Positions 2,342 to 30,333 of a DNA stretch of 31,254 nucleotides are shown in pieces (position 1 is the stretch's first letter; every line of letters starts with the position of its first letter). The position numbers and the translations under genes were made by a program. The notes under the pieces are model-generated. The model was not told the DNA's origin and made no database searches. It saw nothing but the letters and a program-made list of their open reading frames with translations. This DNA is from an uncultured Deinococcales bacterium (GTDB taxonomy: Bacteria > Deinococcota > Deinococci > Deinococcales > JAAFIG01): assembly GCA_964247135.1 (NCBI GenBank), contig CAXTTL010000029.1:1-31254 (forward strand). The letters are read 5' to 3'.

Positions 2342-3571
2342 ATGCCAACCACAACCCGCTCGACCCGTTATTCCAAATACGAATCCACCCTCGACGACAT
2401 CGACACCTCGAGCATCATGGAAATGATCCGCGATTCGATCATTGGCTCTGCGTTCAACAATCCTTACGACCCAGACCCGAACTCTGGGCAGAGCATGGAC
2501 GAGTTGCGCGAAGCGATTTTGCAGGCGTTGATGGAACGCGATTTGATTCCTGACGACATGCTCAAAGAGGCGCAAAGCACCAAGGATTTTGACAAAACGC
2601 GCCTTTCGCAAGAAATTTCCAAAATGATTCAACGCATGAAAGACGAGGGGTACATTCGCGTCGATGATCCCGCCCCGAGCGAAGCCAGCGGGCAAGGCGG
2701 TGCGGGCGACCCAGGGCAGGCGCAATTTCAACTGACCGACAAAAGCATTGACTTTCTGGGCTACAAAACCTTGCGCGATTTGCTCGGCGGTTTGGGCAAG
2801 TCCAGCATGGGACGGCACGACACCAAAGAGTACGCCTCGGGTGTCGAAATGACGGGCGACCTGAAGGATTACGAATTTGGCGATACACTCAATTTGGACA
2901 TTGGCGCAACCCTGACCAACACGATGGCAAAAGGACTTGAGAACCTCGAGGAATCCGATTTGGTCGTGCGTCAAGCCGAGTACAAAAGCAGCGCCGCAAC
3001 GATTGTGATGCTGGACTGTTCGCACAGCATGATCTTGTACGGCGAGGACAGGTTCACACCCGCCAAGCAAGTCGCACTCGCGCTGGCGCACATGATTCGC
3101 ACGCAATATGCGGGAGACACGATCAAGTTTGTGTTGTTTCACGATTCTGCCGAAGAAATCCCTTTGGGCAAACTCGCACAATGCCAAGTTGGTCCGTACC
3201 ACACCAACACCGCAGGCGGCTTAAGGCTCGCGCAACAACTCTTGAAGCGTGAGAACAAAGACATGAAGCAAATCATCATGATTACCGACGGCAAACCCTC
3301 GGCATTAACCTTGCCCGACGGCAGAATTTACAAAAACGCTTGGGGTTTAGACCCATTCGTGCTGGGCGAGACCATCCGCGAGGTGGCGCAATGCAGGCGT
3401 TCGGGTATTCAAATCAACACCTTCATGCTGGCTCGAGACCCCGATTTGATTGCGTTCGTAAAAAAAGTTGCCGAGATGACGCATGGTAAGGCGTATTTCA
3501 CCACGCCGCACAATGTAGGGCAGTATGTGTTGATGGATTACGTGAACAAACGCGTTAAAACCGTGAATTGA
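2342..3571 (+). CDS. vWA domain protein (Rv0959-like)
   Basis: MIDAS DCSHSM, MITDGKP; GAGG upstream of ATG 2342; paired with AAA+ ATPase. Confidence 0.88.
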
Positions 3572-3583
3572 GGTAAAACTTAG

Positions 3584-3620
3584 GAATCTCGAGCTTGATT
3601 TAGAGGCTCGAGATTCTTTT
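3584..3620 (+). terminator. Intrinsic terminator between convergent genes
   Basis: GAATCTCGAGC (3584-3594)/GCTCGAGATTC (3606-3616) perfect 11-bp stem followed by T-run. Confidence 0.7.
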
Positions 3621-3813
3621 ATTTATCAATGGTTTTATGATTTTCAAAAGTTTTCCAAATTTTTTCATAAACCACTTCAATTTCTGTCCTACTTTTTACG
3701 CCAACACGAATATTTATATCGCTTGAAGGATCATGTATTACTTCTCTAAGACAATCTAAAACCAGTGATAAATCATTTAACGTGATCTCGAATTGAACTA
3801 TTTTGTTTTGCAT
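3619..3813 (-). CDS. Small AT-rich hypothetical protein (orphan immunity-like)
   Basis: 64 aa ORF with GAGAGAGGA SD; low GC versus flanks. Confidence 0.55.
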   Translation of the reverse strand: MQNKIVQFEITLNDLSLVLDCLREVIHDPSSDINIRVGVKSRTEIEVVYEKIWKTFENHKTIDK

Positions 3814-3860
3814 AAATCCTCTCTCAATAATATTGCTCTAAAAACTTCCATACCTCGTCC

Positions 3861-3911
3861 TCAGACCTCAATTTCACAACCGCACTCGAGATTCAATTGT
3901 ACATGTGATTC
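3861..3911 (-). repeat. Relict duplicate of the Uma2 gene 3' end
   Basis: Translates ESHVQLNLECGCEIEV* versus ESPVKLNLECGCEIEV* at 4614-4664. Confidence 0.85.
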
Positions 3912-3947
3912 GCGCAAAAAACCGATTCAATCGTGTACAATCTAGCT

Positions 3948-4178
3948 ATGGAAATCGCATTGTCAAAAGATGCGCTCAGACGCATTGAAAAACTGCAAAA
4001 CAGCCTAAAAACCACCAGTGCGGACGTGATTGAACAAGCACTGGTCGAACTCGAGCGTCGAGCCGATAATTTTCGGGCAATTCTCGAGGATGATGCTGTC
4101 AATCATGATTTGTCCGAAGAGGATGGAATGTTGTTGGCACTCGAGGCGCAACGTGCTGTGCGGGATGCTCGAGGTTAG
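3948..4178 (+). CDS. Putative antitoxin (RHH/CopG-like), leaderless
   Basis: TACAAT(3936-3941)-N6-ATG; stop overlaps PIN gene start. Confidence 0.7.
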   Translation: MEIALSKDALRRIEKLQNSLKTTSADVIEQALVELERRADNFRAILEDDAVNHDLSEEDGMLLALEAQRAVRDARG

Positions 4179-4609
4179 TGTTAAAAGTTGTTTTGGATAC
4201 GAATGTTTTTATCAGTGCGATGCTTCACCCAGATGGCGTTTGTGGAAATATCATTCGAGCTTGGGAACACCGCGCTTTTGTGGTGTTGTATAACTTTGAG
4301 TTGCTCGAGGAAATCAAATTGGTTTGCGCTTACCCACGTTTGAAAAAGCGTTTGAAACGCAATCGGATTGGTGCGCTTGTCAATCAATTGCACTCGGACG
4401 GCTTGTACATTAAAGGCAACCGAACCTGGAGGGAATCCAAAGACCCAAAGGACAATTTCTTAATCGCTATTGTCGAACAAGGTCATGCCGATGCTTTGGT
4501 GAGCAGCGATAACATTGGCGTTTTGGAATTGAAAACGCTTGGAGAAGCTGTTATTTTGACTCCAGCCGAGTTCTTAAATTTTTTGCGATTGCGTCAATTG
4601 ATTGACTAA
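4178..4609 (+). CDS. PIN-domain toxin (PIN_3/VapC-like)
   Basis: VVLDTNVFISA, LEE, DPKDNFL, ADALVSSD acidic PIN motifs. Confidence 0.88.
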   Translation: MLKVVLDTNVFISAMLHPDGVCGNIIRAWEHRAFVVLYNFELLEEIKLVCAYPRLKKRLKRNRIGALVNQLHSDGLYIKGNRTWRESKDPKDNFLIAIVEQGHADALVSSDNIGVLELKTLGEAVILTPAEFLNFLRLRQLID

Positions 4610-4613
4610 ATCC

Positions 4614-5114
4614 TTAAACCTCAATTTCACAACCACACTCGAGATTTAATTTCACGGGTGACTCGAGCCGTATCTTAAAGTCTTTTCTGTGATGGTACAC
4701 GATTTTAAGCCGTGGCTCGAGAATCAAAACATCTTTCACGCCCAAGCCAAGGTAAAAACTGGGGGCAACCTCGAGGTCTTTGTACTCGTAACCTTCGGAA
4801 ATCACTTCAACCACGGCTTCGGGGATAATCTCGAGGGCGCTGTAAAGTTGTTCGGGTTTTAATTCTTGGCAGAGAATCGCAATGTCTGGACGTTTGAGTG
4901 AACCTTCGCCAAACTTAAAAAGCGTGTCCGAAAGGTGCGTGCAGGCACAAGCTCGAGAATCATCTTTTGGTTTAATGCTCTCTCGAATTCGGTCAATCTC
5001 GAGTTGATGCCCTGCGACTGGACTGGCTTCCCACAGTGGAACACCACGCACAAACTCGAGCCGCACATTCATGTTGGCAGCATCAAGAATCATTTGCTCG
5101 GGTGTTATTGCCAT
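4614..5114 (-). CDS. Uma2 family (PD-(D/E)xK) putative endonuclease, leaderless
   Basis: RLEFVRG...SP...H, KRPDIA, PEAVVEVIS, KD...Y...GV; TAAACT-N6-ATG. Confidence 0.85.
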   Translation of the reverse strand: MAITPEQMILDAANMNVRLEFVRGVPLWEASPVAGHQLEIDRIRESIKPKDDSRACACTHLSDTLFKFGEGSLKRPDIAILCQELKPEQLYSALEIIPEAVVEVISEGYEYKDLEVAPSFYLGLGVKDVLILEPRLKIVYHHRKDFKIRLESPVKLNLECGCEIEV

Positions 5115-17064: not shown

Positions 17065-18579
17065 ATGGGGAACGAGGGCGTTTTTAACGGTTACGCACCA
17101 AACGGGTTCTTCGATGAAATGTTTGAACCCGACGGCACGCCTCGAGCGCACTACGCAAAGGTGCTCGAGCGACTTGAGGCTTTGGGACGCCCCGAATTTG
17201 AGCGACGGCGCACCTTATCGGATTTGAGCTTCCGCAATCAAGGCATCACCTTTACCGTTTACGGCGACACCGAAGGCACCGAACGCACCTTTCCGTTTGA
17301 CCCAGTGCCGCGCATCATTCCCGCCCAAGAATGGGCGCACCTCGAGAGGGGTTTGACGCAGCGCGTGCTTGCCTTGAACGCGTTTTTGCGCGATGTTTAC
17401 GGCAAGGGCGAGATTTTGAACGACGGCGTCGTGCCCAGAGACTTGGTTTTAAGTGCCAGCCATTTCCGCCGCGAGGTTCACGGCATCAACCTGCCGCACG
17501 GTTTGTACACCCACGTGGTCGGCTCGGATTTGATTCGAGACGAAAACGGCACGTACATGGTGCTCGAGGACAATCTGCGCACACCCTCGGGCGTCAGTTA
17601 TTTGCTGGCAAACCGGGTCGCCATGACCCGCACCTTGCCCAGTTTGTTTCAAGACCAGGGCGTGCGCCCAGTCCAGCATTACACCACGGTGCTGCTCGAG
17701 TTGCTGCGCTCGCTCGCGCCCAGGAATGTCGAAGAGCCAACCATCGTCGTGCTGACCCCTGGGATGTACAACAGCGCCTATTTCGAGCACGCCTTTTTGG
17801 CGCAGCAAATGGGCGTGGAATTGGTTGAGGGCAGGGATTTGTTTGTCTCGGACGGCAAAGTTTGGATGCGCACCACATCTGGGCGCGAACAGGTGGACGT
17901 GATTTACCGCCGCGTCGATGACGATTACCTCGACCCACTGGCTTTTAATCCCAACTCGAGCCTCGGCGTGCCAGGTTTGCTCGAGGCGTACCGCAGCGGT
18001 CGTGTGGCGCTGGCAAACGCGATTGGTGCGGGCGTGGCGGACGACAAAGCGATTTACGCCTACGTGCCAAAAATGATCGAGTATTACCTCTCCGAGCGCC
18101 CAATCTTGCCGAACGTGCCAACGCTCTTGGGTTGGGACAAAGAAGGGCTTGCCGAAATGATGAACAGTCCAGAAAAACTGGTGATCAAAGCCGTCGGCGA
18201 GGCGGGCGGTTACGGCATGTTGGTCGGTACGGCATCGAGCAAAGCCGAGATTGCCGAGTTCATGAAAAAAGTGACCGCCAACCCGCGCAATTACATCGGA
18301 CAACCCACCATCGCCCTCTCGAGACACCCGACGTATTACCCCGACACAGGACAGTTTGAACCCTGCCATGTGGACTTGCGCCCGTACATTCTGGTCGGCG
18401 AAAAGATCACAATTGTGCCAGGCGGCTTAACCCGAGTTGCCTTAAAACGCGGCAGTCTGGTGGTCAACTCCAGTCAGGGCGGCGGCAGCAAAGACACCTG
18501 GGTGCTCGAGGACACGCACTCGGGACAAAGCCAATCCCAATCGCAGAGTCAATCGCAAAACATGGGCGGTGATGATTAA
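17065..18579 (+). CDS. Circularly permuted type 2 ATP-grasp protein
   Basis: [58 protein letters not shown]. Confidence 0.92.
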
Positions 18580-19508
18580 TGCTCTCTCGGGTTGCCGAAA
18601 GTTTATTCTGGATTGCGCGGTACATCGAACGCGCCGAAAACATTGCCAGGCTCTTGGACGTGAACTACTACGCCACGCTCGAGGGGGCAGGACTGGTCAC
18701 CCAGCAATGGTCACCCCTGCTGGCGATTACAGGCTCACAAGAGGAGTTCAAAGCCAAGGGTTACCGCGCCGACGCAAGAACCGTACCAAACTGGTTGGCG
18801 TTCGATCCCAGCAATCCCTCGAGCATCCGCAGTTGCATCGCTCAAGCCCGCGAGAACGCCCGAGCGCTGCGCGACCGAATCTCGAGCGAAATGTGGGAGT
18901 GCATCAACAGCGCCTATCACAAACTTTGCTTTGGCACCGAACACGTTTTGCCCAACGACGAGTTGCACCAATACTGCGTGACCGTGCGCGACGCCAGCCA
19001 CCTGTTTTTCGGCATTGCCTTCGCCACCTTGCCGCGCGATCAGGGCTGGCAATTTTTGCAGGCGGGACAACACCTCGAGCGCGGCGATGCCCTGTTGCGG
19101 CTCTTGCAAGTCAGGTACAAAAACACGGGCGGAGCAGCCGTCGCCGAAGCTTTAGAGAATCACCGTTGGATGGCAGTCCTGAAAACCGCCAGCGCCTACG
19201 AGGCTTACCGCAAAAGCAAAGCCCGCCTCGAGCCTAGGGGTATCGCCGAATTTTTGCTGCTCGAACCAGACTTTCCGCGCAGCGTCCGCTACTGCGCCGA
19301 AACCCTCTGCGCCGCCCTCGAACTGATCGCCGAAGCCAACCGCAGCGGCAAACGCGACGCCCTGCGCGAAGTCGGTTGGCTCGCCGCGAAACTCGAGTAC
19401 GCGCAAATCGATCAGATTTTAGACCTTGAAAACCCCAGTCTCGAGCAATTGCTGGGCGATTTTAACGCGGTGGGTGCGGCGGTCTACCGAGCCTATTTTA
19501 GCAATTAG
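18579..19508 (+). CDS. Alpha-E domain protein
   Basis: [41 protein letters not shown]. Confidence 0.92.
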   Translation: MLSRVAESLFWIARYIERAENIARLLDVNYYATLEGAGLVTQQWSPLLAITGSQEEFKAKGYRADARTVPNWLAFDPSNPSSIRSCIAQARENARALRDRISSEMWECINSAYHKLCFGTEHVLPNDELHQYCVTVRDASHLFFGIAFATLPRDQGWQFLQAGQHLERGDALLRLLQVRYKNTGGAAVAEALENHRWMAVLKTASAYEAYRKSKARLEPRGIAEFLLLEPDFPRSVRYCAETLCAALELIAEANRSGKRDALREVGWLAAKLEYAQIDQILDLENPSLEQLLGDFNAVGAAVYRAYFSN

Positions 19509-19588
19509 CAAACCCAGCTTCTTTGGGTACGAGAAAATGATTTTGGCTTATCGCTTAAAGCTTGGAGCTTAGAGCCAAAGGGGTTTCA

Positions 19589-20416
19589 GTGCGAGCCAAC
19601 ATCCATCACATCACCGAATACCGTTACCCCGAACCCGCCTTCGATTCGTTTAACGAACTGCGCCTGAAACCGATTGAAGACTCGAGACAGAGCGTGCTGT
19701 CATTTCAGTTGCGACTCGAGCCGAACGTGCCCGTTTACTCGCACCTGGATTATTACGGCACGACCCTGCATCACTTTCATGTGCTCGAGAAGCACACCAT
19801 CTTGAGGATTGAAACTAAAGCGTTGGTCGTCACGCACGCCATGACCCAACCGATTGGGCAACCCGCCAGCGTCCTCGAGCCGCACCGAATACCGAACATT
19901 GAATACCTGACCACCAGCCCTCGCGTGCCGCTCGAGTTTGACTGGGCGATCATTTTGGGCTGGCACAAGCTTGGGACAGCGGAAGATTATGTCGCGTACC
20001 TGGACGGTCTGAACTCGCATTTACACTCGAGATTTACCTATCAATCTGGGTTCACAAAAGTGGACACGCCCTTGCTCGAGTTTGTGCAGGGTGGCATTGG
20101 CGTCTGCCAAGATTACGCCCACGCCATGCTCGCCGTGGCGCGAAGCAACGGCATTCCAGCGCGGTACGTCAGCGGTTACGTTTACGCTGGCAGCGATTTT
20201 GTTGGCGCGGAAGCCACCCATGCTTGGCTCGAGTGTTTGATTCCAGGTTACGGCTGGCTTGGCTTTGACCCGACCAACAACACCCGCATCAACGAATCGC
20301 ACATCAAAATTGGGCATGGACGCGATTACGACGATGTACCACCCTTGCGCGGATTGCGGCGCGGTGGGGGCATAGAATCGATTGGGGTTGAGGTTTCGGT
20401 GGATGTTCAACAGTAA
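19589..20416 (+). CDS. Transglutaminase-like protein (Bact_transglu_N plus catalytic core)
   Basis: H.TEY.Y, GVCQDYAH, IPARYVSGY, HAW.E, GFDPTN, GRDY.DV.P. Confidence 0.92.
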   Translation: MRANIHHITEYRYPEPAFDSFNELRLKPIEDSRQSVLSFQLRLEPNVPVYSHLDYYGTTLHHFHVLEKHTILRIETKALVVTHAMTQPIGQPASVLEPHRIPNIEYLTTSPRVPLEFDWAIILGWHKLGTAEDYVAYLDGLNSHLHSRFTYQSGFTKVDTPLLEFVQGGIGVCQDYAHAMLAVARSNGIPARYVSGYVYAGSDFVGAEATHAWLECLIPGYGWLGFDPTNNTRINESHIKIGHGRDYDDVPPLRGLRRGGGIESIGVEVSVDVQQ

Positions 20417-21777: not shown

Positions 21778-22917
21778 TCAAAGCACCTCGAGTTGCGCAG
21801 GATTTGGATTGGATTCGGTGGCACCGCTTAAGGCAAGCTTCACGCTGATGCCCCGTTTGCCGCTCGAGGTGATAAGGGCAAACTCACCTGCCAGGGCTGC
21901 GACCCGTTCTCGCATTCCGGCAATGCCGTTGCCTTCGGTTAGCTCGAGTTGCGTATCGTCATAAATCTCGAGCATCACGAATTGATTTTTTTGCTCCAAG
22001 CTGACAAAACAGGTTTTGGCATGGCTGTGCCTCACCACGTTGGTGATCGCCTCGCGCAAAATAAACGCCAGGGTTTGCTCGGTCGCCCATTCCAATTCGA
22101 GCGGCACGATGAACGGCTCGAGCTTGATTTGTGCCGCCTCGAGCGCCAAGGAAATGTTGGCGAGTTCGGCTTCGAGTCCACTCGAGCGGTACCCGCGCAC
22201 GGCGCTACGGACTTCGGACAGGGCTTCGCGGCTGATCCGTTCGACATCACGGATTTCGGCGATGGCTTTGGCAGGATTTTTTTCGGCGAGCTTGCTGGCG
22301 AGTTCGGACTTTAAGACGATCACCGAAAGCGTGTGCCCGAGCAAATCGTGAAGGTCACGCGCAATCCGTTCGCGTTCGGCAACTTTGGCAATGCGTGAAA
22401 CCTCATCTTGCGAGCGCCTGAGTTTTCGCTTGGTCATCATTTCTTGATAACCCATGTGGTTGCCCAAAGCCGCAATGATGGTCGAGATTGGAATGCTCCA
22501 GATCAACCAACCAGAACCAGCCAGTGCGAAATACAGTGTCGCAACAAAAGCAATGGCAATGCTGACCAGAGCGGGTCGAATGCTTTTTTGAAAACCTGCG
22601 AACGAACCCGCGTAAACCAAAAACCCCATACTGTCACCCTGAACGACCAGCCACAACAAACCCAGAATGACGTAACTCGAGATCATGCCAATCAAACTTG
22701 GCATCTGATACGGTTGCTCGAGGTTGATGTCCGAGCGACGAACCCAAAAAAACGCCCAGAGGAAAATCGCAATAAAAACAACGATCCAAAAAAAACTGTA
22801 AAAATACTGGAGCAGCGGTCGTGGTTGATTGACCAAAGCTACGATTGGGAAGCTCAAAAACACCAACCACACCAACGGAAACCAACGTGTCAAGGTATTG
22901 GGATTTGGGTTTGTCAT
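21778..22917 (-). CDS. HisKA_3 sensor histidine kinase (DesK/YvfT-like)
   Basis: Several TM segments, ERERIARDLHDLLGHTLS, REAITNVVRHS, GNGIAGMRER. Confidence 0.92.
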   Translation of the reverse strand: MTNPNPNTLTRWFPLVWLVFLSFPIVALVNQPRPLLQYFYSFFWIVVFIAIFLWAFFWVRRSDINLEQPYQMPSLIGMISSYVILGLLWLVVQGDSMGFLVYAGSFAGFQKSIRPALVSIAIAFVATLYFALAGSGWLIWSIPISTIIAALGNHMGYQEMMTKRKLRRSQDEVSRIAKVAERERIARDLHDLLGHTLSVIVLKSELASKLAEKNPAKAIAEIRDVERISREALSEVRSAVRGYRSSGLEAELANISLALEAAQIKLEPFIVPLELEWATEQTLAFILREAITNVVRHSHAKTCFVSLEQKNQFVMLEIYDDTQLELTEGNGIAGMRERVAALAGEFALITSSGKRGISVKLALSGATESNPNPAQLEVL

Positions 22918-22938
22918 GATTCCTTCTCGAGAAACAGT

Positions 22939-23742
22939 TTAACCGTACTGCTTGGCTTCGTCACGTTTGTACGCCCAGACCGCCAACGCCAAAAACAGCA
23001 CGGTAAAACCCAAATTCCACATGATGTGCGAGTTGAGGCTGGCGCTGTCACCCGCGCCCAAAGTGTGCCAAGCCAGTTGACCGCTGTGATAGGCGGGCAG
23101 GTACGGCGCGATGTCTTGGACAAACTGTGGCAGGTTCTTGATCGGCAAAAAGATGCCTGAGGCGAACGACATCGGTAAGAAAATCAGTTGCGTGATCGGC
23201 GTGGCACTTTGTGGGTTGCCAAGATAACCAATGAACAAGCCCAGCGCCACGAAGGGCATCATGCCGAGCATGATTCTGGCGGTCAGCAACAACCAAGTCT
23301 CGAGTGGGAGTGAAATGTGCGCGACCAGAATTCCAAAAATAAACAATGCCCCAAGTGTGAATAAGCCCGACAGCATCGCCGTGATAATTTTCGCGCTGAA
23401 GTACATGATTGGGTGCATCGGTGTTGCGCGGGTCAAACGATTCCAGCCCAAACCGCGCTCGGCGGCAATGCCGACCCCGAAACCGAACAGGGCTGCCGAA
23501 AGCATTCCATAAGTCCCATATGAAGCCAGCAAATACGCGCCGAGCTTAACCCCATTGCCAATGTTTTCTTTGGCGTTGGGCAAACCAAAGAGCGTAAAGA
23601 ACATGATCGGGAACAAAACGGTGGGAATCAAAAAACCTGGGTTGCGCAGCAAACGAATGACCTCGCAGTACAACTGATAGCCCAGCGGTTTGAACGGATT
23701 GTAAGCTCGAGCAGGCATATTTTTGGGGTTCAGAACAGTCAT
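22939..23742 (-). CDS. ABC-2 type permease (YvfS-like)
   Basis: Multiple TM segments, ERGLGW.RL.RATP, LPAYH. Confidence 0.88.
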   Translation of the reverse strand: MTVLNPKNMPARAYNPFKPLGYQLYCEVIRLLRNPGFLIPTVLFPIMFFTLFGLPNAKENIGNGVKLGAYLLASYGTYGMLSAALFGFGVGIAAERGLGWNRLTRATPMHPIMYFSAKIITAMLSGLFTLGALFIFGILVAHISLPLETWLLLTARIMLGMMPFVALGLFIGYLGNPQSATPITQLIFLPMSFASGIFLPIKNLPQFVQDIAPYLPAYHSGQLAWHTLGAGDSASLNSHIMWNLGFTVLFLALAVWAYKRDEAKQYG

Positions 23743-24632
23743 TGTTTTGCTCCTTGTTCGGTGATTTCCATGAAGGCTTCCTCGAGTCCGGCACCCGTCA
23801 CGCTAAGGTTTGAAATCTGCAAGCCAGAAGCGAAAATTTCTTGCAAAACTTTTTCCGGCTCGAGCGTGTACAAGTTCACAGTGTCGGCGGTCTGATTGAA
23901 ACGTTGCACATTCGCCAGTTGTTCGATTGTGCCCACATTTCCAACCTCGAGTTTGAACGAAACGTTCTTGCCACCGACCCGAGATTTGATTTGCGCGGGG
24001 CTGCCCTGCGCCACGATCTCGCCTTTGTTGATGACAATGATTCGGTTTGCCAGCGCGTCGGCTTCCTCGAGGTAATGCGTGGTCAGGATCACGGTTTTGC
24101 CCGTTTTGGCAAAGATTGAGATTTCTTGCCAGAACGCGCGACGCGATTCGACATCGAGTGCCACGCTGGGTTCGTCCAGAAACAAGACATCGGGATTGCC
24201 GCAAATGGCGAGTGCAAAATACAGGCGTTGCTTCTGCCCACCCGAAAGCGTGGAGGCGATGGCATTGGTTTTCTCGGTCAAATTTGCCATCTCGAGCACC
24301 TTGGAAACCATCAAGGGCGCGTTGTAAAACTGGGTGAACAACTGAATCAACTCGCGCACCTTCAACAATCCTGGCACGCCCGATTCTTGCAGCATCACCC
24401 CGATTCGCGCACGGTTTTTGGGTTCTCGAGGGTTCTGCCCAAAAATTCTGGCATTGCCGCTCGAGGGTGAACGCAAACCAAGCATGATGCTGATGGCGGT
24501 GGTTTTTCCCGCGCCGTTCGGTCCGAGAAACGCGACGACCTCACCCGAATCAACTTTGATTGACACGTTGCGAAGTGCTTGAACACTTCCAAAAGATTTA
24601 CTGGCATTCTCGAGTTCAACCGCCAAAGTCAT
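23739..24632 (-). CDS. ABC transporter ATP-binding protein (YvfR-like)
   Basis: GPNGAGKTT, LSGGQKQR, LFLDEP, TTHYLEEA; AGGAGG SD before ATG 24632. Confidence 0.92.
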   Translation of the reverse strand: MTLAVELENASKSFGSVQALRNVSIKVDSGEVVAFLGPNGAGKTTAISIMLGLRSPSSGNARIFGQNPREPKNRARIGVMLQESGVPGLLKVRELIQLFTQFYNAPLMVSKVLEMANLTEKTNAIASTLSGGQKQRLYFALAICGNPDVLFLDEPSVALDVESRRAFWQEISIFAKTGKTVILTTHYLEEADALANRIIVINKGEIVAQGSPAQIKSRVGGKNVSFKLEVGNVGTIEQLANVQRFNQTADTVNLYTLEPEKVLQEIFASGLQISNLSVTGAGLEEAFMEITEQGAKQ

Positions 24633-24679
24633 AAAATATCCTCCTGCGGTTATTCTCGAGCGTGCCGCATTTTTTAGAC

Positions 24680-24716
24680 AGTGCAGGCTGTCAGAAGCCA
24701 GACATGACAAAAGTCA
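24680..24716 (-). promoter_or_regulatory. Probable DesR/YvfU-type response regulator box
   Basis: TGAC-AAAA-GTCA palindrome (24705-24716) plus degenerate second site TGACAGCCTGCACT upstream of the ABC-TCS operon. Confidence 0.55.
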
Positions 24717-25487: not shown

Positions 25488-25574
25488 TCATTACAGTCTA
25501 CCGATTTTTGAAACTCGAGATTCGATCACGAGGAACATGGCAAGTATTTTCTCAACTCGAGGTAAACTGACTGC

Positions 25575-28445
25575 ATTAAAACGCTGCCTCGAGAAACCAA
25601 TACTTTAGGGCGCTTAAGGGCGCTCGGAAATGTACGGCTCGAGCCGTTTGGGTTCTCTCAAGCCAAGCCGCTGGTGTTGTTGGTGTATGTGGCGCTCGAG
25701 GGTGAGCAGAACCGCGATCATTTGCGCGAGTTGTTCTTCCCGAATGCGAGCGACGCGGCGGGCAGTTTGCGCAGCACCATCAACCGCGTGCGGCAAATTC
25801 TGCCGACGGCGTTTGAGGGTTCAGGCTCGAGGTTGAAAGCCGGCGTGGCGTGTGATGCGGCAGAGGTCTTGTTTGCGCTCGAGCATCAGGATTTGGAACG
25901 GGCGGTCGAACTGTATACCGCGCCGTTTCTCGAGCATTTGGAAATTTCGGAGGTTCACGCCGAGTTGCTCGAGTGGGTTGAATCGATGCGGGCGTATTTG
26001 GCTCGAGGGGTGATCGAGGCGCATTTGACGCTGGCAGAACGAAGCATTGAACGTTCAATTCGAGAAGGGCATCTCGAGGCGGCACGGAACGTTTCTGGTT
26101 TTGAAAATCTCGAGCCAGCCTGGTTGCAACGAATCAAAACGCTCGAAAGCCTCAACCTCGAGGTCACAAAACCTTTGGCAATTCCAAACAACCTCTCGCA
26201 AAGCTCAACCAGTTTTATCGGACGCGCCCGAGAGTCGGCGCACGTGCTCGAGTTGCTGCAAGAGGAAGCCCGCTTGGTGACCCTGGTCGGACCTGGCGGC
26301 GTGGGCAAAACCCGTTTGGCGCTCGAGATTGCACGGCAAAGTTTGCAACTCGAGGGTTTCAGCAACGGTGTGTTCATGGTCATGCTCGAGGCGGTCAATG
26401 ACCTTGAAGCCCTGCTGTCCAGAATCGTTCAAGTTTTGAAATTGAGCCTGAAACCCGACGCACCCGTGCTCGAACAAATCATTGAAGGCATCGGGCAACA
26501 CCAAATCTTGTTGGTGCTCGATAATTTCGAGCACCTGACCGAACACGGTTTTCACCTGACGCTGCTGCTCGAGCGTTGCCCAAACTTGCGCCTGATCGTG
26601 ACCTCCAGAGAACGCCTGAATTTGAACAGCGAATGGATCACGCCGCTCGAAGGTTTAAGTGCAAGCTCCGATCAAGATGCGGCGCTCGAGTTGTTCTTGG
26701 ATCGTGCCGCCAGAATTGGAATGCCCGTTCAGACTCCAGAAGACCGCCAAGATGCCCTCGAGATTTGCAAACTCGTGCACGGTTTTCCGCTGGCGATTGA
26801 ACTTGCCGTGCCGCTGTTACGCGCCCTGGACTTGAGCGAACTGCGTGAAGATTTAAGCCGCAACCTCGACCTTTTGGACAACACTTTGCGCGACACGCCC
26901 GAACGTCACCGCAGCATCCGCGCCGTGTTCGAGCATTCTTGGAAGATGCTGACCCCACCCGAGCAACATGCCCTGGCGCAACTCGCTGTGTTCAGGGGCG
27001 GCGCAACCCGAGAAGCCATTGGCGCAATCAACGCCACCAAATTGCAAACCCTGGCAAACCTGACCGACAAGAGTTTGGTGCAACGCGACGAAACCAATCG
27101 TTTTGGCATTCACCCACTTTTGTACCAATTCACGCTTGAAAAACTGCTCGAGCTTGCCGATTTTGCCAGCAGTTTTGAACGTCACAGCGATTATTATTTA
27201 ACCAAACTCGAGCGAGACACCGCCCAAATTCGCGGGTCTGAAGCCGCGAGTGCCATGCGCAACATCGAAACCGAACTCGAGAATATTCGGGCGGCATGGT
27301 CGCACGCGATTCAAAACCATCAAGCCCCAAGGCTCGAGAAAGTGCAAGATTTGGTGGTGTTTTTCGATCAACGCTCGAGGTACGCCGAGGGTTTGATTTG
27401 GTTTGAAGAAGCGATTACCAAACTCGAGTTGGACATGACCGCACCGCTTGCCCTGGCTGGAATGCTGGTCGGTGCGGCGTGGTTGCATTACCGATTGCGG
27501 CAAAGCCAAGAAGCGGAACAGAAAGCCCAACGTGCGGCAGATTTGGCTCGAGCGATGGGTGAAAGTGCTGAGGAGATTTTGTCCAAGGCTTTAAATACAC
27601 TTGGAAGCATCGCATTGTTTATGCACAATTATCAGAATGCCGTGCTCTTTGGAGAAGAAGCTTTAGAACTTACCAAAAAAAGTGGTGATTCCGCTCGAGA
27701 GGCAATTTGCCTTATCAATTTGGCAAATGCGGAAAAAATGCTTAAATTATTCCATAACGCAAAAAAGCGGTATGAAGAAGCTTTATTGATTTCTCAAGAT
27801 GGTAAAAATGATCGTGTCAGCATTCTTGCACATGTCAATTTGACCAATTTACTTATCTTTGATACGAGTGAAAAAGACTATTCGCGAATAATCTTTTTAG
27901 CAAAAAATGGTTTGGATTTGGCAGAAAAAAACAATGATACTTTGGCGATTATTCATCTCCGTTGGCAGTTGAGCTTGGCTTATTTTAATATTTCAGATTT
28001 TGAAGAGTCTAAAAAAATTGCTGAAACAATCTACGTAGAAGCAGTAAAATCAAATGTACCTGATTTTCAAGTTTTAGTTTTAAACATTCAAGGTCGAATT
28101 GCACTAGCGTATGGAAAAGCTGAAGAAGCAAAAACTTTTCTTATTGCTGGGTTAAAACTTGCACATAACATTGACGAGATTCCTAGGGTTTTAGACACAC
28201 TTATCTACTTTGCAGACCTTGAGAGTCGTTATGGTAAAATTTCTCGAGCAATTCGATATCTTCAAACCGTTATACACCACCCGCTTTTACATGATGCACA
28301 AATCAAAGAAAACCAAGCGATTTTTGATCGCTTGGTTATTGAGAAACCTATTTTGTCTCGAGGTGTGCATCCAGAATATTCTATTCAAGACATTGTGCAT
28401 GAAATATTACTTGAGGATACTACCGAATCAACCGTAGTGATTTAA
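25575..28445 (+). CDS. SARP/BTAD-NB-ARC(STAND)-TPR regulator; ORF-track GTG 25674 start is probably internal
   Basis: N-terminal LRALG.VRLE...KPLVLLVYVALEG...R.HL.ELFFP; Walker A GPGGVGKT; Walker B LLVLDNFEH; VTSRE; GFPLAIELA; IHPLL; C-terminal TPR-like repeats (ALNTLG, CLINLA, VLNIQG). Confidence 0.85.
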   Translation: MKTLPRETNTLGRLRALGNVRLEPFGFSQAKPLVLLVYVALEGEQNRDHLRELFFPNASDAAGSLRSTINRVRQILPTAFEGSGSRLKAGVACDAAEVLFALEHQDLERAVELYTAPFLEHLEISEVHAELLEWVESMRAYLARGVIEAHLTLAERSIERSIREGHLEAARNVSGFENLEPAWLQRIKTLESLNLEVTKPLAIPNNLSQSSTSFIGRARESAHVLELLQEEARLVTLVGPGGVGKTRLALEIARQSLQLEGFSNGVFMVMLEAVNDLEALLSRIVQVLKLSLKPDAPVLEQIIEGIGQHQILLVLDNFEHLTEHGFHLTLLLERCPNLRLIVTSRERLNLNSEWITPLEGLSASSDQDAALELFLDRAARIGMPVQTPEDRQDALEICKLVHGFPLAIELAVPLLRALDLSELREDLSRNLDLLDNTLRDTPERHRSIRAVFEHSWKMLTPPEQHALAQLAVFRGGATREAIGAINATKLQTLANLTDKSLVQRDETNRFGIHPLLYQFTLEKLLELADFASSFERHSDYYLTKLERDTAQIRGSEAASAMRNIETELENIRAAWSHAIQNHQAPRLEKVQDLVVFFDQRSRYAEGLIWFEEAITKLELDMTAPLALAGMLVGAAWLHYRLRQSQEAEQKAQRAADLARAMGESAEEILSKALNTLGSIALFMHNYQNAVLFGEEALELTKKSGDSAREAICLINLANAEKMLKLFHNAKKRYEEALLISQDGKNDRVSILAHVNLTNLLIFDTSEKDYSRIIFLAKNGLDLAEKNNDTLAIIHLRWQLSLAYFNISDFEESKKIAETIYVEAVKSNVPDFQVLVLNIQGRIALAYGKAEEAKTFLIAGLKLAHNIDEIPRVLDTLIYFADLESRYGKISRAIRYLQTVIHHPLLHDAQIKENQAIFDRLVIEKPILSRGVHPEYSIQDIVHEILLEDTTESTVVI

Positions 28446-28573
28446 GGTCCACCATTCACTGTACTAGGACCATTTGGTGCAATTGGCGGTGTAATTATGC
28501 CTTTTTGCACGCCAGCCATCACTCCCAAGCCCAGTACCGCAAACACCGCAAGCACTCTTGATAGTTTTTTCAT
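28442..28573 (-). CDS. Unannotated 43-aa secreted peptide precursor MKKLSRVLAVFAVLGLGVMAGVQKGIITPPIAPNGPSTVNGGP
   Basis: SD AAGGAGGTG 6 nt upstream; Sec signal (KK.SR, hydrophobic core, VMA cleavage); stop overlaps the STAND stop in TTAA. Confidence 0.8.
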   Translation of the reverse strand: MKKLSRVLAVFAVLGLGVMAGVQKGIITPPIAPNGPSTVNGGP

Positions 28574-28653
28574 TCAATTCACCTCCTTCAAATTTAAATA
28601 TTAGGGTTCAGGCTTTTGTAGATTTAAACAATCTCAAACAAAGTTGCTCGAGA

Positions 28654-28687
28654 CTTGGAATGAACAGCCTTATTTATTCGTTCCAAG
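28654..28687. promoter_or_regulatory. Inverted repeat between COG4315-like gene and peptide gene (terminator or operator)
   Basis: CTTGGAATGAA/TTCGTTCCAAG, 1 mismatch (G-U). Confidence 0.45.
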
Positions 28688-28751
28688 CAAATTTTAATTC
28701 AAAAAAAAAAATACAATACCCCAAATCATGTACGCATTACTTTAGCAATGA

Positions 28752-29201
28752 TTAAGGTCCACTATTAAGTGAGGTAGGTCCACCAATATCATCTGGGTCA
28801 TCCGCACCAGCAATTGATACCCCTACCCGTAATGGCGCAATATTTGGTGAAACCAGTTGAAACAACTTCGGAACTTCATGGATCGAATCGGCAGTGGCGC
28901 TGGGGTAAAAGTACAACCACCAACCACGGTAACTGATTTGCGTTAAACCCTCGTCGGGTGGACCATCGCGGTCAAAGTCGCTCAGGTCTTCTTGCTTGAC
29001 GCCTGCCCCCGCTTTGGGCGCTCCAATCAACGGACTCCAGGTGGCAATAAACTCGAGCAGGTACGGTGGGAAGTTTCCGCCCCAGGGAATGTACAAATGG
29101 TCGGGGTCGGATTTCATGGGGACAAAACGGTAGATGGTTCTGCCGTCGCCCGTGACCAGGTGCTTGCCGTCCTTGGATACTTGGATGATAACATCTGCCA
29201 T
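28752..29201 (-). CDS. COG4315/Lipoprotein_15-like protein without signal peptide, with C-terminal GPTSLNSGP tail
   Basis: HLVTGDGRTIYRF, WSPL, AGAGV...L..F.R.., QISYRGWWLYFY; AAGGAG SD before ATG 29201. Confidence 0.7.
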   Translation of the reverse strand: MADVIIQVSKDGKHLVTGDGRTIYRFVPMKSDPDHLYIPWGGNFPPYLLEFIATWSPLIGAPKAGAGVKQEDLSDFDRDGPPDEGLTQISYRGWWLYFYPSATADSIHEVPKLFQLVSPNIAPLRVGVSIAGADDPDDIGGPTSLNSGP

Positions 29202-29358
29202 GCGTGCTCCTTTTGAAGCATTGATTTTGTAAAGCAACTCGAGCATAACATGCGTGTTCATTCTTGTTGGTCAAGTCAAAACACTAAAATCTCGAGCTTT
29301 GGTTGGCAATTGGAATCTGGCTCGAGTTTGAAAATGGGGCTTGTCGTATTCTGAATTT

Positions 29359-30333
29359 ATGATCGATTCAAAATCCTCGGGCAAGATCACAGAATCAGAA
29401 CCTCGAGCGAGCGACACCAACGAAGACCTTGGCATTGGGCAGGTGGCGGCAGAAAAAAGCACGGCGCGGTTTGTCAATCAGGATGGGTCGTTTAACACCA
29501 GGCGTTTGGGTTTGGGGTTCCTCTCGAGTCAGAATGCGTTTTACGGGTTGATTACCTTGCAGCCTGCTTTGTTTTTCGTTTTTTTGGCAGCCACATTTTT
29601 TTTGCTCAACCTGTTGTTCGCCAGTTTGTACTGGCTTTGTGGCAACGATGCACTGCAATCTGGTTCCAATGTGGTGCTCGAGAATCGGTTTTGGCGAGGG
29701 TTTTTCTTTAGCGTGCAAACGCTGTCCACGATTGGTTACGGGCATGTCGCGCCTGCCAGTGTCGCGGCGAACATTGTGGCGACCGTCGAGGCTTTTGTGG
29801 GTTTGTTGGCTGTGGCTTTGGCAACGGGCTTGTTGTTTGCCAGGTTTTCCAAACCGATGACCCGAATCTTGTTTTCCAAAAACATGTTGTTCGCACCGTA
29901 TCAAGACGGTACGGCTTGGATGATACGGGTGGTGAATGGTTTACAAAATGAAGTGCTTGACATCGAAGCCCTGGTGACACTTTCCTGGTACGAAAACGTC
30001 AACGGTGCTCGGGTCCGTAAGTTCCGTCAGTTAAAACTCGAGCGCCAGAAGGTCGCGTTTTTCAATTTGTCTTGGACGGTGGTGCATCCCATCACTCAGG
30101 ACAGTCCGTTGTGGGGTGTGACTGAAAACATGTTGCTCGAATCTGATGCCGAGTTCTTGATTGTGCTTCAGGGTGTGGACGATGTTTTGTTTCAGCGCGT
30201 TCATGCCAGGGGTTCGTACAAAGCCACCGAAGCGGTTTGGAACGCCAAATTCGCCGACATTTACGCGCCAGCCAGTTTGGGGTATGTGGCGGTGGATACG
30301 ACCAAGCTCAGCAATTACGAAAAACTGGGTTGA
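29359..30333 (+). CDS. Inward-rectifier (KirBac-like) potassium channel, leaderless
   Basis: R.VNQDGSFN, FFFSVQTLSTIGYG filter, GLLFARFS, SWTVVHPI..DSPL; TATTCT-N6-ATG. Confidence 0.9.
   Translation: MIDSKSSGKITESEPRASDTNEDLGIGQVAAEKSTARFVNQDGSFNTRRLGLGFLSSQNAFYGLITLQPALFFVFLAATFFLLNLLFASLYWLCGNDALQSGSNVVLENRFWRGFFFSVQTLSTIGYGHVAPASVAANIVATVEAFVGLLAVALATGLLFARFSKPMTRILFSKNMLFAPYQDGTAWMIRVVNGLQNEVLDIEALVTLSWYENVNGARVRKFRQLKLERQKVAFFNLSWTVVHPITQDSPLWGVTENMLLESDAEFLIVLQGVDDVLFQRVHARGSYKATEAVWNAKFADIYAPASLGYVAVDTTKLSNYEKLG

Follow-up and report, generated by a model that had tools for sequence, protein, structure and literature searches.

Peptide receptors, STAND regulators and the locus analysed

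In the RRNPP systems of bacteria, which include Rap-Phr, NprR-NprX, PlcR-PapR and AimR-AimP, receptor and peptide co-vary from strain to strain, as pherotypes. The receptor is a cytoplasmic protein of tetratricopeptide repeats (TPR) whose gene lies beside that of an exported pre-peptide of about 40-50 amino acids (aa), and in this pre-peptide the signal part is conserved while the active, C-terminal part is variable (available sections of PMC10075063 and PMC9765709). A locus reminiscent of this arrangement is present on contig CAXTTL010000029.1, which was analysed over its entire 31,254 bases (the window) and belongs to a metagenome-assembled genome (G000; 5.09 Mb, 386 contigs, 84% complete) whose relatives are on record as uncultured Deinococcales. 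The locus encodes an AfsR-like STAND regulator and, in convergent orientation, a cytoplasmic protein termed p169, with a 43-aa open reading frame (ORF) between the two (Table 1). An earlier interpretation made from the letters of this DNA, here called the sequence-only reading, had joined the regulator and the 43-aa product into a candidate peptide-signalling system. To judge from the comparison of related genomes, the regulator and p169 are a conserved Deinococcales pair, and the locus may tentatively be read as a two- or three-gene module for sensing that is specific to Deinococcales.

MalT has protein anti-activators, namely MalY, MalK and Aes. In STAND proteins of the MalT type the inducer binds to the C-terminal repeat sensor and the NOD switch is released (available portion of PMC4381067). 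Phosphorylation modulates the Streptomyces regulator AfsR, whose "natural upstream signal" is still to be found; the gene afsS, which is a target of AfsR, lies downstream of afsR in the same direction and its product contains internal repeats and is devoid of the GGP tail that characterises the proteins described below (accessible part of the preprint 10.64898/2026.09.02.748808).

Table 1. Coordinates of the features of the regulator-p169 locus in the window
Feature	Position	Strand	Remarks
AfsR-like STAND regulator	25566..28445	+	959 open codons; TPR sensor reaches the stop
SARP-like winged helix and BTAD-like helices of the regulator	~25600-26130	+	predicted from AlphaFold model and fold matches
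NB-ARC of the regulator, residues 194-389	~26254-26840	+	Pfam 1.1e-9; followed by an arm, then the TPR sensor
Replaced (allelic) low-GC cassette	27420..28800		TPR-coding part, small ORF, spacer and last ~16 codons of p169
Terminator-like hairpin, 11-bp stem then T-run	28311..28337	-	105 nt downstream of the small ORF, antisense within the regulator coding sequence
Small ORF, 43 aa, ATG start	28442..28573	-	signal-like N-terminus, GGP tail, stop overlapping the regulator stop
AT-rich spacer between p169 and small ORF	28574..28751	-	unique in the genome
Shine-Dalgarno sequence AAGGAGGTG of the small ORF	28580..28588	-	6 nt ahead of the ATG at 28573-28571
p169, 149 aa, cytoplasmic	28752..29201	-	COG4315/Lipoprotein_15-like domain and disordered acidic tail ending ...GGPTSLNSGP
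p169 leader/promoter region, conserved, common to the divergent Kir-like channel gene	29202..29340	-	alignment of five same-genus loci

The convergent pair and the tail of p169

A regulator homologue faces a p169 homologue with a complete tail in 14 loci among 40 relatives, and a convergent regulator homologue is also found in 12 of 12 additional Deinococcaceae loci (L097-L108), which together make up the sample of 26 loci used throughout. The Deinococcaceae search gave 30 loci, and those in which the match ends before the p169 tail (L109-L112) are left out of the counts. The stops of p169 and the regulator are between -119 and +25 nucleotides (nt) apart in 19 of the 26 loci. The flanking genes change between genera while the pair persists, and the pair is therefore regarded as the unit. 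In the window these neighbours encode a Kir-like channel and a HAD hydrolase; in genus g5 they encode an M20 peptidase and a T2SSE ATPase, and in genus g3 a CDF transporter and an acyl-CoA dehydrogenase.

The sequence-only reading had taken the small peptide as the partner of the regulator. This assignment is superseded, as the constant partner is the convergent p169, which lies inside the interval that was described and went unmentioned, and the tail of the small peptide copies that of p169. p169 occurs as a single copy in the window genome and a signal peptide is not seen by eye. It scores 25.8-26.3 bits against Pfam Lipoprotein_15 (cut-off 24.4) along one 19-residue stretch. A p169 profile run against 1.84 billion representatives gave 201 matches at E<=0.001, among which 22 of the best 150 were fetched; these are short single-stretch proteins in the best rows that are mutually less than 50% identical (P0066, P0067, P0071 and the lower rows were left out). 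The same profile also retrieves multi-repeat proteins. The p169 family differs from a secreted tandem-repeat lipoprotein in that it consists of a single unit and a signal peptide is not seen by eye in 21 of the 22 representatives or in the loci. The structural model of p169 has a confidence (pLDDT) of 64 and its tail is disordered, and Foldseek retrieved nothing from the PDB at E<=0.001 with this model. A longer, 169-aa version starting from 29261 was considered and discarded, as the extension is not conserved as protein: a 1-nt indel shifts it in G003, and distant homologues have a stop just upstream.

The hallmark of the family is its extreme C-terminus. It has the form x-G-P, mostly GGP: alignment A1 has GP at the end of each of its 15 rows, as do 22/22 of the fetched representatives (GGP in 17/22) and 12/12 of the Deinococcaceae p169 proteins (GGP in 9/12). 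The tail is usually preceded by an acidic run (e.g. DDPDDVGGP), and the four to six residues ahead of the final GGP vary even within clusters of 90% identity. Metagenome contigs scanned with the p169 alignment gave 133 pattern matches and 0 confirmed cases, and one DNA sequencing run (0.05 share) contained short pieces of relatives over p169 only, the small ORF having no usable coverage; no RNA run was listed.

An AfsR-type regulator

The regulator, whose residues are numbered along the 959-codon frame, has Pfam matches to NB-ARC (Table 1) and TPR_12 (4.2e-11) as well as TPR_2 and TPR_MalT, and a signal peptide is not seen by eye. A profile of its N-terminal part found no relative among PDB sequences. 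The AlphaFold model of residues 1-190 (pLDDT 80.8) has as its six best Foldseek matches in the PDB AfsR (8k60/8hvr; E 1.1e-3, probability 1.0) and EmbR (2ff4/2fez; TM score 0.54-0.57), none of which is below E 0.001. A profile built from 12 regulators gives AfsR as the best PDB sequence match, through its NB-ARC domain (2.6e-23). Because of the Pfam NB-ARC and TPR matches, the N-terminal fold matches to AfsR and EmbR and the AfsR profile match, the description of the protein as an NLR-like SARP-NB-ARC-TPR receptor, first put forward in the sequence-only reading, holds at the level of the predicted fold, and the regulator would be a large SARP of the AfsR kind.

The TPR part resembles TPR domains that bind peptides, including LGN/Pins, kinesin light chain, the sensor of the STAND protein PH0952 and Rap/NprR. 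The scores of the A2 profile place it closer to LGN (6.8e-22) and kinesin light chain (4e-12) than to Rap3T (2.1e-8), RapF (4e-6) or NprR (1.5e-5). K674 and N677 are invariant or nearly so in alignment A2, by which no clamp residues are established. The predicted complex of regulator residues 585-959 with p169 has a score of 0.01, which counts neither way.

The start of the regulator has three candidates, ATT at 25575, CTG at 25584, which is aligned with the ATG of the g5 orthologues, and GTG at 25674, the first ATG/GTG/TTG codon. The GTG falls within the predicted winged helix, upstream of which there is no ATG, GTG or TTG, and three genomes of the same genus keep the open frame from 25566 on. 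It is thus likely, from the sequence, that a non-canonical start is used. The start at 25575 chosen in the sequence-only reading lies in the open frame; its codon is ATT, and the first canonical start is the GTG.

A jointly replaced cassette

Within the genus the window was compared with G001, G005, G002 and G003. DNA identity to G001 and G005 is 83-98% up to ~27415, falls between ~27420 and 27600, is mostly 0-58% over ~27480-28800 (two edge bins reach 72%) and recovers at ~28800-28820, at least 16 codons ahead of the p169 stop, to reach 78-100% over ~28820-29240. The GC content within this cassette is 0.45 and 0.40 as opposed to 0.52-0.57 elsewhere. Over residues 1-640 the same-genus regulators share 58-100% of positions in each 50-aa window (84-98% in most; 86-92% across residues 310-640), with a synonymous divergence (dS) of 0.43-0.66 and a non-synonymous divergence (dN) of 0.05-0.11. 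The body of p169 has a comparable range of dS (0.40-0.56). The TPR sensor, comprising residues 660-950, is 22-54% identical and its dS extends from 1.3 to infinity.

Outside the genus the comparison used G012, G014, G017 and G018 of a second genus, g5, as well as G013. The DNA of G012 and G018 is 73-94% identical (mostly 80-94%) up to nt 3189 of locus L011, 14-53% over 3190-4498 and 81-96% from 4499, and it follows from the boundary at 4499 that the last ~11 codons of p169 are inside the cassette. The regulator heads of this pair are 83-87% identical and the sensors 17-21%. In G013 and G018 the heads are 45-65% and the sensors 52-62% identical, the last nine residues of the tail are the same, and the small ORF is absent from both. 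G012, G014 and G017 have in common the type of sensor (61-76%), tails of the form DPT..GGP and the small ORF, which in G017 is a remnant. When peptide and p169 tails are compared by eye they are alike within a cassette type, although the cognate tail is not always the single best match.

On this comparative evidence a block of ~1.3 kb that comprises the TPR sensor, the intergenic piece and the tail of p169 is replaced as one, with sharp boundaries and with a cassette type that is incongruent with the backbone. The cassette looks like old allelic diversity that has been exchanged by recombination, and not simply like fast evolution. Gene conversion from a paralogue was rejected as the source of the TPR cassette of the window, since in 19 family genomes no non-self match to it is better than the orthologue in G003 (48-51%). 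In G003 this regulator gene is divided between contigs C219 and C205 with the break inside the variable TPR cassette, which fits a strain-level polymorphism that disrupts assembly.

The small ORF as a probable gene

The small ORF, its 43-aa translation, its Shine-Dalgarno (SD) sequence and its interlocked stop are all as the sequence-only reading had reported. The palindrome TTAA at 28442-28445 is common to both genes and supplies the TAA of the regulator (28443-28445) and the stop of the small ORF (complement of 28442-28444). By eye the N-terminus resembles a Sec signal, in which K2, K3 and R6 are followed by 15 hydrophobic residues and V-M-A, and then a G. The C-terminus reads ...NGPSTVNGGP, and TTAAGGTCCAC is common to the 3' ends of the small ORF (28442) and p169 (28752). 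ORFs that end in GGP are rare in the window genome (6 of 68,323 ORFs of at least 25 aa), and because of this rarity and the shared TTAAGGTCCAC the tail of the small ORF is, at the level of sequence, read as a copy of the p169 tail.

A length of 43 codons by itself is no better than chance, because 91 ORFs of at least 30 aa occur in 7.2 kb. It is the joint features that, as sequence evidence, exceed chance: a rare GGP end beside a GGP-tailed family, 43-aa homologues and a counterpart in a second genus. A search of 5.8 billion proteins retrieved two proteins of 43 aa that are 86% and 81% identical to the small ORF, and clusters add a third, so that with these three metagenome proteins of exactly 43 aa (81-86% identical to that of the window) there are four versions in total. 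Among the four, residues 1-27 differ at one to three positions and residues 28-43 at five to six, and the p169 proteins of the lineages concerned are 10-15% diverged.

The g5 counterpart, a 46-aa ORF, has the corresponding position and strand and a signal-like N-terminus, is preceded by the same GAAGGAGGTG and ends in ...DPTNYGGGP in G012 and ...DPTGYNGGP in G014; the G017 remnant lacks the SD and the first codons. It took inspection of the gaps separating p169 from the regulator to detect these ORFs, as a tblastn-type search with the window peptide found no homologue in the 40 relatives and also missed the g5 small ORFs. The homologue is not found at the other orthologous loci of the window's own genus: in three of them the gap between p169 and the regulator is -22 to +2 nt, which leaves no room for it, and the fourth, G002, has a 154-nt spacer unrelated to that of the window. 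The expectation that the 3' flanks of regulator homologues would contain small ORFs with signal peptides was thus realised in a second genus (G012, G014 and the remnant in G017) and is limited by the number of loci, as an intact ORF is present in only 3 of the 26 and the Deinococcus loci are without it.

Between G012 and G014 the small ORF has a dS of 0.71 and a dN of 0.14. The 34 codons outside the overlap with the regulator contain 12 synonymous and nine non-synonymous changes, for which the binomial P of 0.0012 is the lowest among the six frames, the changes per codon position are 8/3/10, and the spacer upstream is barely alignable. In genus g5 the small ORF evolves like coding sequence. 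In the four 43-aa versions it is the signal part that is conserved and the tail that varies, and the small ORF is quite probably a real gene.

In the small ORF of g5, both SD and AUG lie inside a perfect 20-bp inverted repeat (L011 4366-4405 and L012 4345-4384, minus strand). The corresponding 91-nt stretch has a minimum free energy of about -39 kcal/mol (z -9.5 and -7.8) and no counterpart in the window, and the loop is in opposite orientation in G012 and G014. This hairpin may sequester the SD in an anti-SD fashion or terminate the regulator transcript. Two terminator-like hairpins were found where 1.3 are expected, and the one located 105 nt downstream of the small ORF has a z of -3.3. Rfam gave a single sub-threshold match and nothing more over 28200-29450. 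The spacer was ruled out as a repeat or mobile element, as the genome contains no second copy of it.

Two tandem small ORFs are located elsewhere in the window genome, in L002 (G000:C109) at 1243-1449 and 1486-1626 on the minus strand, downstream of a 367-aa helical protein. Their signal parts resemble that of the window peptide (MKKVLRVL..., 46% over 39 residues, E 0.1) and their C-termini are rich in Cys and Gly, and judging from the sequence they may be another family of small exported peptides.

What the sensor may read

The interpretation favoured here, tentatively and with real room for error, is that the free GGP tail is what the TPR sensor reads, with the exported peptide as an optional second ligand. 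The TPR superhelix would bind the tail with the invariant C-terminus as an anchor and the variable residues for specificity, and p169 would be the resident intracellular ligand, or an anti-activator of the NB-ARC switch. The product of the small gene would be exported, cleaved to about 20 aa and carry the same tail outside the cell; it would re-enter through a peptide ABC importer and compete with p169 or replace it at the sensor, and in this way add a density or kin input. Uptake of the peptide is plausible given the 26 SBP_bac_5 matches in the window genome. The patchy presence of the small gene would result from its loss by recombination between the two direct tail repeats. A wider proposition, that free C-terminal ...x4-GGP tails are the natural ligands of an AfsR-type clade of bacterial NLRs and that sensor and tail, with the exported copy where there is one, are exchanged as a specificity cassette of ~1.3 kb, is suggested by the same comparisons and is for the moment doubtful.

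Several observations weigh against tail sensing. The small ORF is intact in 3/26 loci from two genera (G000, G012 and G014) and a remnant in one (G017), and is therefore dispensable for the regulator-p169 pair. The test for selection concerns 21 nucleotide differences, three other frames also reach P 0.01-0.04, and it covers the g5 pair G012/G014 rather than the version of the window. A promoter scan near the small ORF and the spacer did not find a sigma-70-like site, the g5 hairpin that contains the SD and AUG may instead be a terminator for the regulator, and Pfam BTAD and Trans_reg_C do not match the regulator N-terminus even at E 10. The sequence-only reading had proposed a test of co-variation between sensor and peptide. 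The sensor is replaced jointly with the p169 tail, but the co-variation of the two is imperfect: G002 has a tail like that of G001 (PPWILGGP and PPWVYGGP) though the sensors are 22-33% identical, and G000 and G003 share a sensor type (47-54%) and have different tails. The tail sits at the edge of the cassette, and linkage alone could therefore account for its variability. Finally, AfsR binds to the promoter of the adjacent small gene afsS (accessible part of the preprint 10.64898/2026.09.02.748808).

This last observation would equally be expected if the neighbours were output, i.e. if the regulator activated the p169 (and peptide) unit as AfsR does afsS, the inducer were something else, the GGP tail had a function that does not involve the TPR sensor, and the tail varied only by its proximity to the fast-diverging 3' end of the regulator gene. 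The strong conservation of the p169 leader/promoter region within the genus and the imperfect covariation of tail and sensor are both in keeping with such an arrangement. It is nevertheless unlikely, if well worth retaining, because the 3' ends abut or overlap in 19/26 loci and so bring the end of the sensor-coding part beside that of the tail-coding part, because the cassette boundary in both genera is not at the gene end but within p169, 11-16 codons before the stop, and because the tails of G013 and G018 are identical despite sensors that are 52-62% and heads that are 45-65% identical.

The GGP tail could instead be a tag for a third factor such as a protease, chaperone or processing enzyme, with p169 and the exported peptide as its substrates and a regulator that only controls them or is controlled indirectly. 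An extreme C-terminus that is invariant across the diverse p169 family is what a tag would look like, and a homologue of glutamine cyclotransferase, a peptide-modifying enzyme family, takes the place of the small ORF in 2/26 loci and an M20 peptidase gene is divergent from p169 in genus g5. No third factor is conserved beside the pair, however, as the flanks change between genera, and a common tag would need no variable residues that are swapped along with the sensor, which makes this explanation improbable.

It is also hardly to be expected that the small ORF of the window is a functionless by-product, in which a duplication of the p169 3' end together with inserted AT-rich DNA gave an open frame by chance. 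The presence of TTAAGGTCCAC at both 28442 and 28752, the likeness of the two tails, the spacer that is unique in the window genome and the missing homologue in four same-genus orthologous loci could all be so explained. A chance frame would not account for four 43-aa versions that keep the signal part nearly invariant while p169 of the same lineages is 10-15% diverged, nor for an arrangement, SD and coding-type constraint that recur in a second genus. An immune-type NLR, in which the TPR sensor is in an arms race with phage or foreign proteins and p169 is either a host protein under guard or a decoy with a tail that imitates the foreign target, is very improbable, for although the sensor diversity, saturated dS and sharp cassette boundaries recall immune receptor loci and the regulator family is expanded to 13 matches in the window genome, the output domain has a SARP (AfsR/EmbR) fold and not a nuclease, protease or pore, and the context is ordinary chromosomal, its synteny is kept within the genus, and neither defence nor mobile genes were seen alongside.

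Other features of the neighbourhood

A Kir-like potassium channel gene (IRK_C and Ion_trans_2; 29341-30333, plus strand) is divergent from p169 and separated from it by the conserved 139-nt intergenic region; it is kept in G005. The glutamine cyclotransferase homologues (Glu_cyclase_2) that occupy the place of the small ORF have no signal peptide and lie between a p169-like gene and the regulator in two distant versions of the module, L062 (1893-2729, plus strand) and L055 (2052-2903, plus strand), one of these loci being a second copy in G012 and the other in G027. Two further homologues of this enzyme are present elsewhere in the window genome (C171 and C109).

Upstream of the HAD gene and the regulator, the minus strand of the window at 21778-24710 contains genes for a HisKA_3 histidine kinase, an ABC-2 permease and an ABC ATPase, in that order, a context that is kept within the genus only. 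A circularly permuted ATP-grasp protein, an Alpha-E domain protein and a transglutaminase-like protein are encoded at 17065-20416 (plus strand); this set is a known conserved triad and is not linked to the pair. A lower-GC stretch (0.44-0.46) at 4178-5114 contains a gene with a PIN_3 domain, arranged tail to tail with one that resembles Uma2-family endonucleases.

Relation to described systems and significance

The part of the RRNPP analogy that stands is the TPR-repeat receptor with an adjacent predicted pro-peptide ORF (in G000, G012 and G014). The system is nevertheless outside RRNPP, because an inserted NB-ARC ATPase separates the TPR from the head, which is SARP-like instead of an XRE-type helix-turn-helix. 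Unlike in RRNPP, the peptide gene is convergent and optional (3/26), the constant partner is a cytoplasmic protein with the same tail, and the phylum is Deinococcota; in the available sections of PMC10075063 and PMC9765709 neither Deinococc* nor NB-ARC is mentioned. Like AfsR-AfsS of Streptomyces, the locus has the order SARP, NB-ARC, TPR and a small, fast-evolving gene that adjoins the regulator, but the small genes here are convergent, and the accessible part of the AfsR preprint describes no replaced sensor cassette (10.64898/2026.09.02.748808). MalT-type regulators differ in their sugar inducer and LuxR-type helix-turn-helix output and are without a tail-bearing partner or cassette polymorphism, although an action of p169 on the regulator would have a precedent in their protein anti-activators.

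TPR domains that clamp a free C-terminus are known from Hop, which recognises EEVD, and PEX5, which recognises PTS1. By analogy, a TPR may recognise the GGP tails through an extreme C-terminus that does not vary and adjoining residues that vary and give specificity. The pherotype cassettes comQXP and agrBDC are polymorphic blocks that cover the signal and the sensing part of the receptor, with sharp boundaries and incongruent flanks; their peptides are modified and are sensed by membrane histidine kinases, whereas here the receptor is a cytoplasmic STAND protein. In NLR-associated amyloid pairs of the HET-s/NWD2-like kind a short motif is common to the partner and the NLR N-terminus. Unlike in those pairs, the N-termini of the regulators (alignment A3, by eye) are without a tail-like Gly/Pro motif, and the shared motif joins p169 and the small ORF. 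Full-text searches of the literature did not turn up an account of the pair, its GGP tail or the cassette; supplements of RRNPP and STAND surveys, which were outside their coverage, might list such loci.

The locus provides a concrete candidate ligand for AfsR-type (large SARP) regulators, namely a short tail that is encoded a few bases from the end of the sensor-coding part, and cassette types A and B are natural cognate and non-cognate sensor-tail pairs. If the exported peptide is sensed, cytoplasmic TPR-peptide signalling would be extended to a STAND receptor and a new phylum, and the origin of such a circuit would be apparent, the tail of an intracellular ligand having been duplicated onto a signal peptide. 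Were this true, it would amount to peptide-based cell-cell or kin signalling through a STAND receptor, with an intracellular ligand-receptor pair as its foundation. It would then be the first such system in Deinococcota and the first that does not belong to the RRNPP families.

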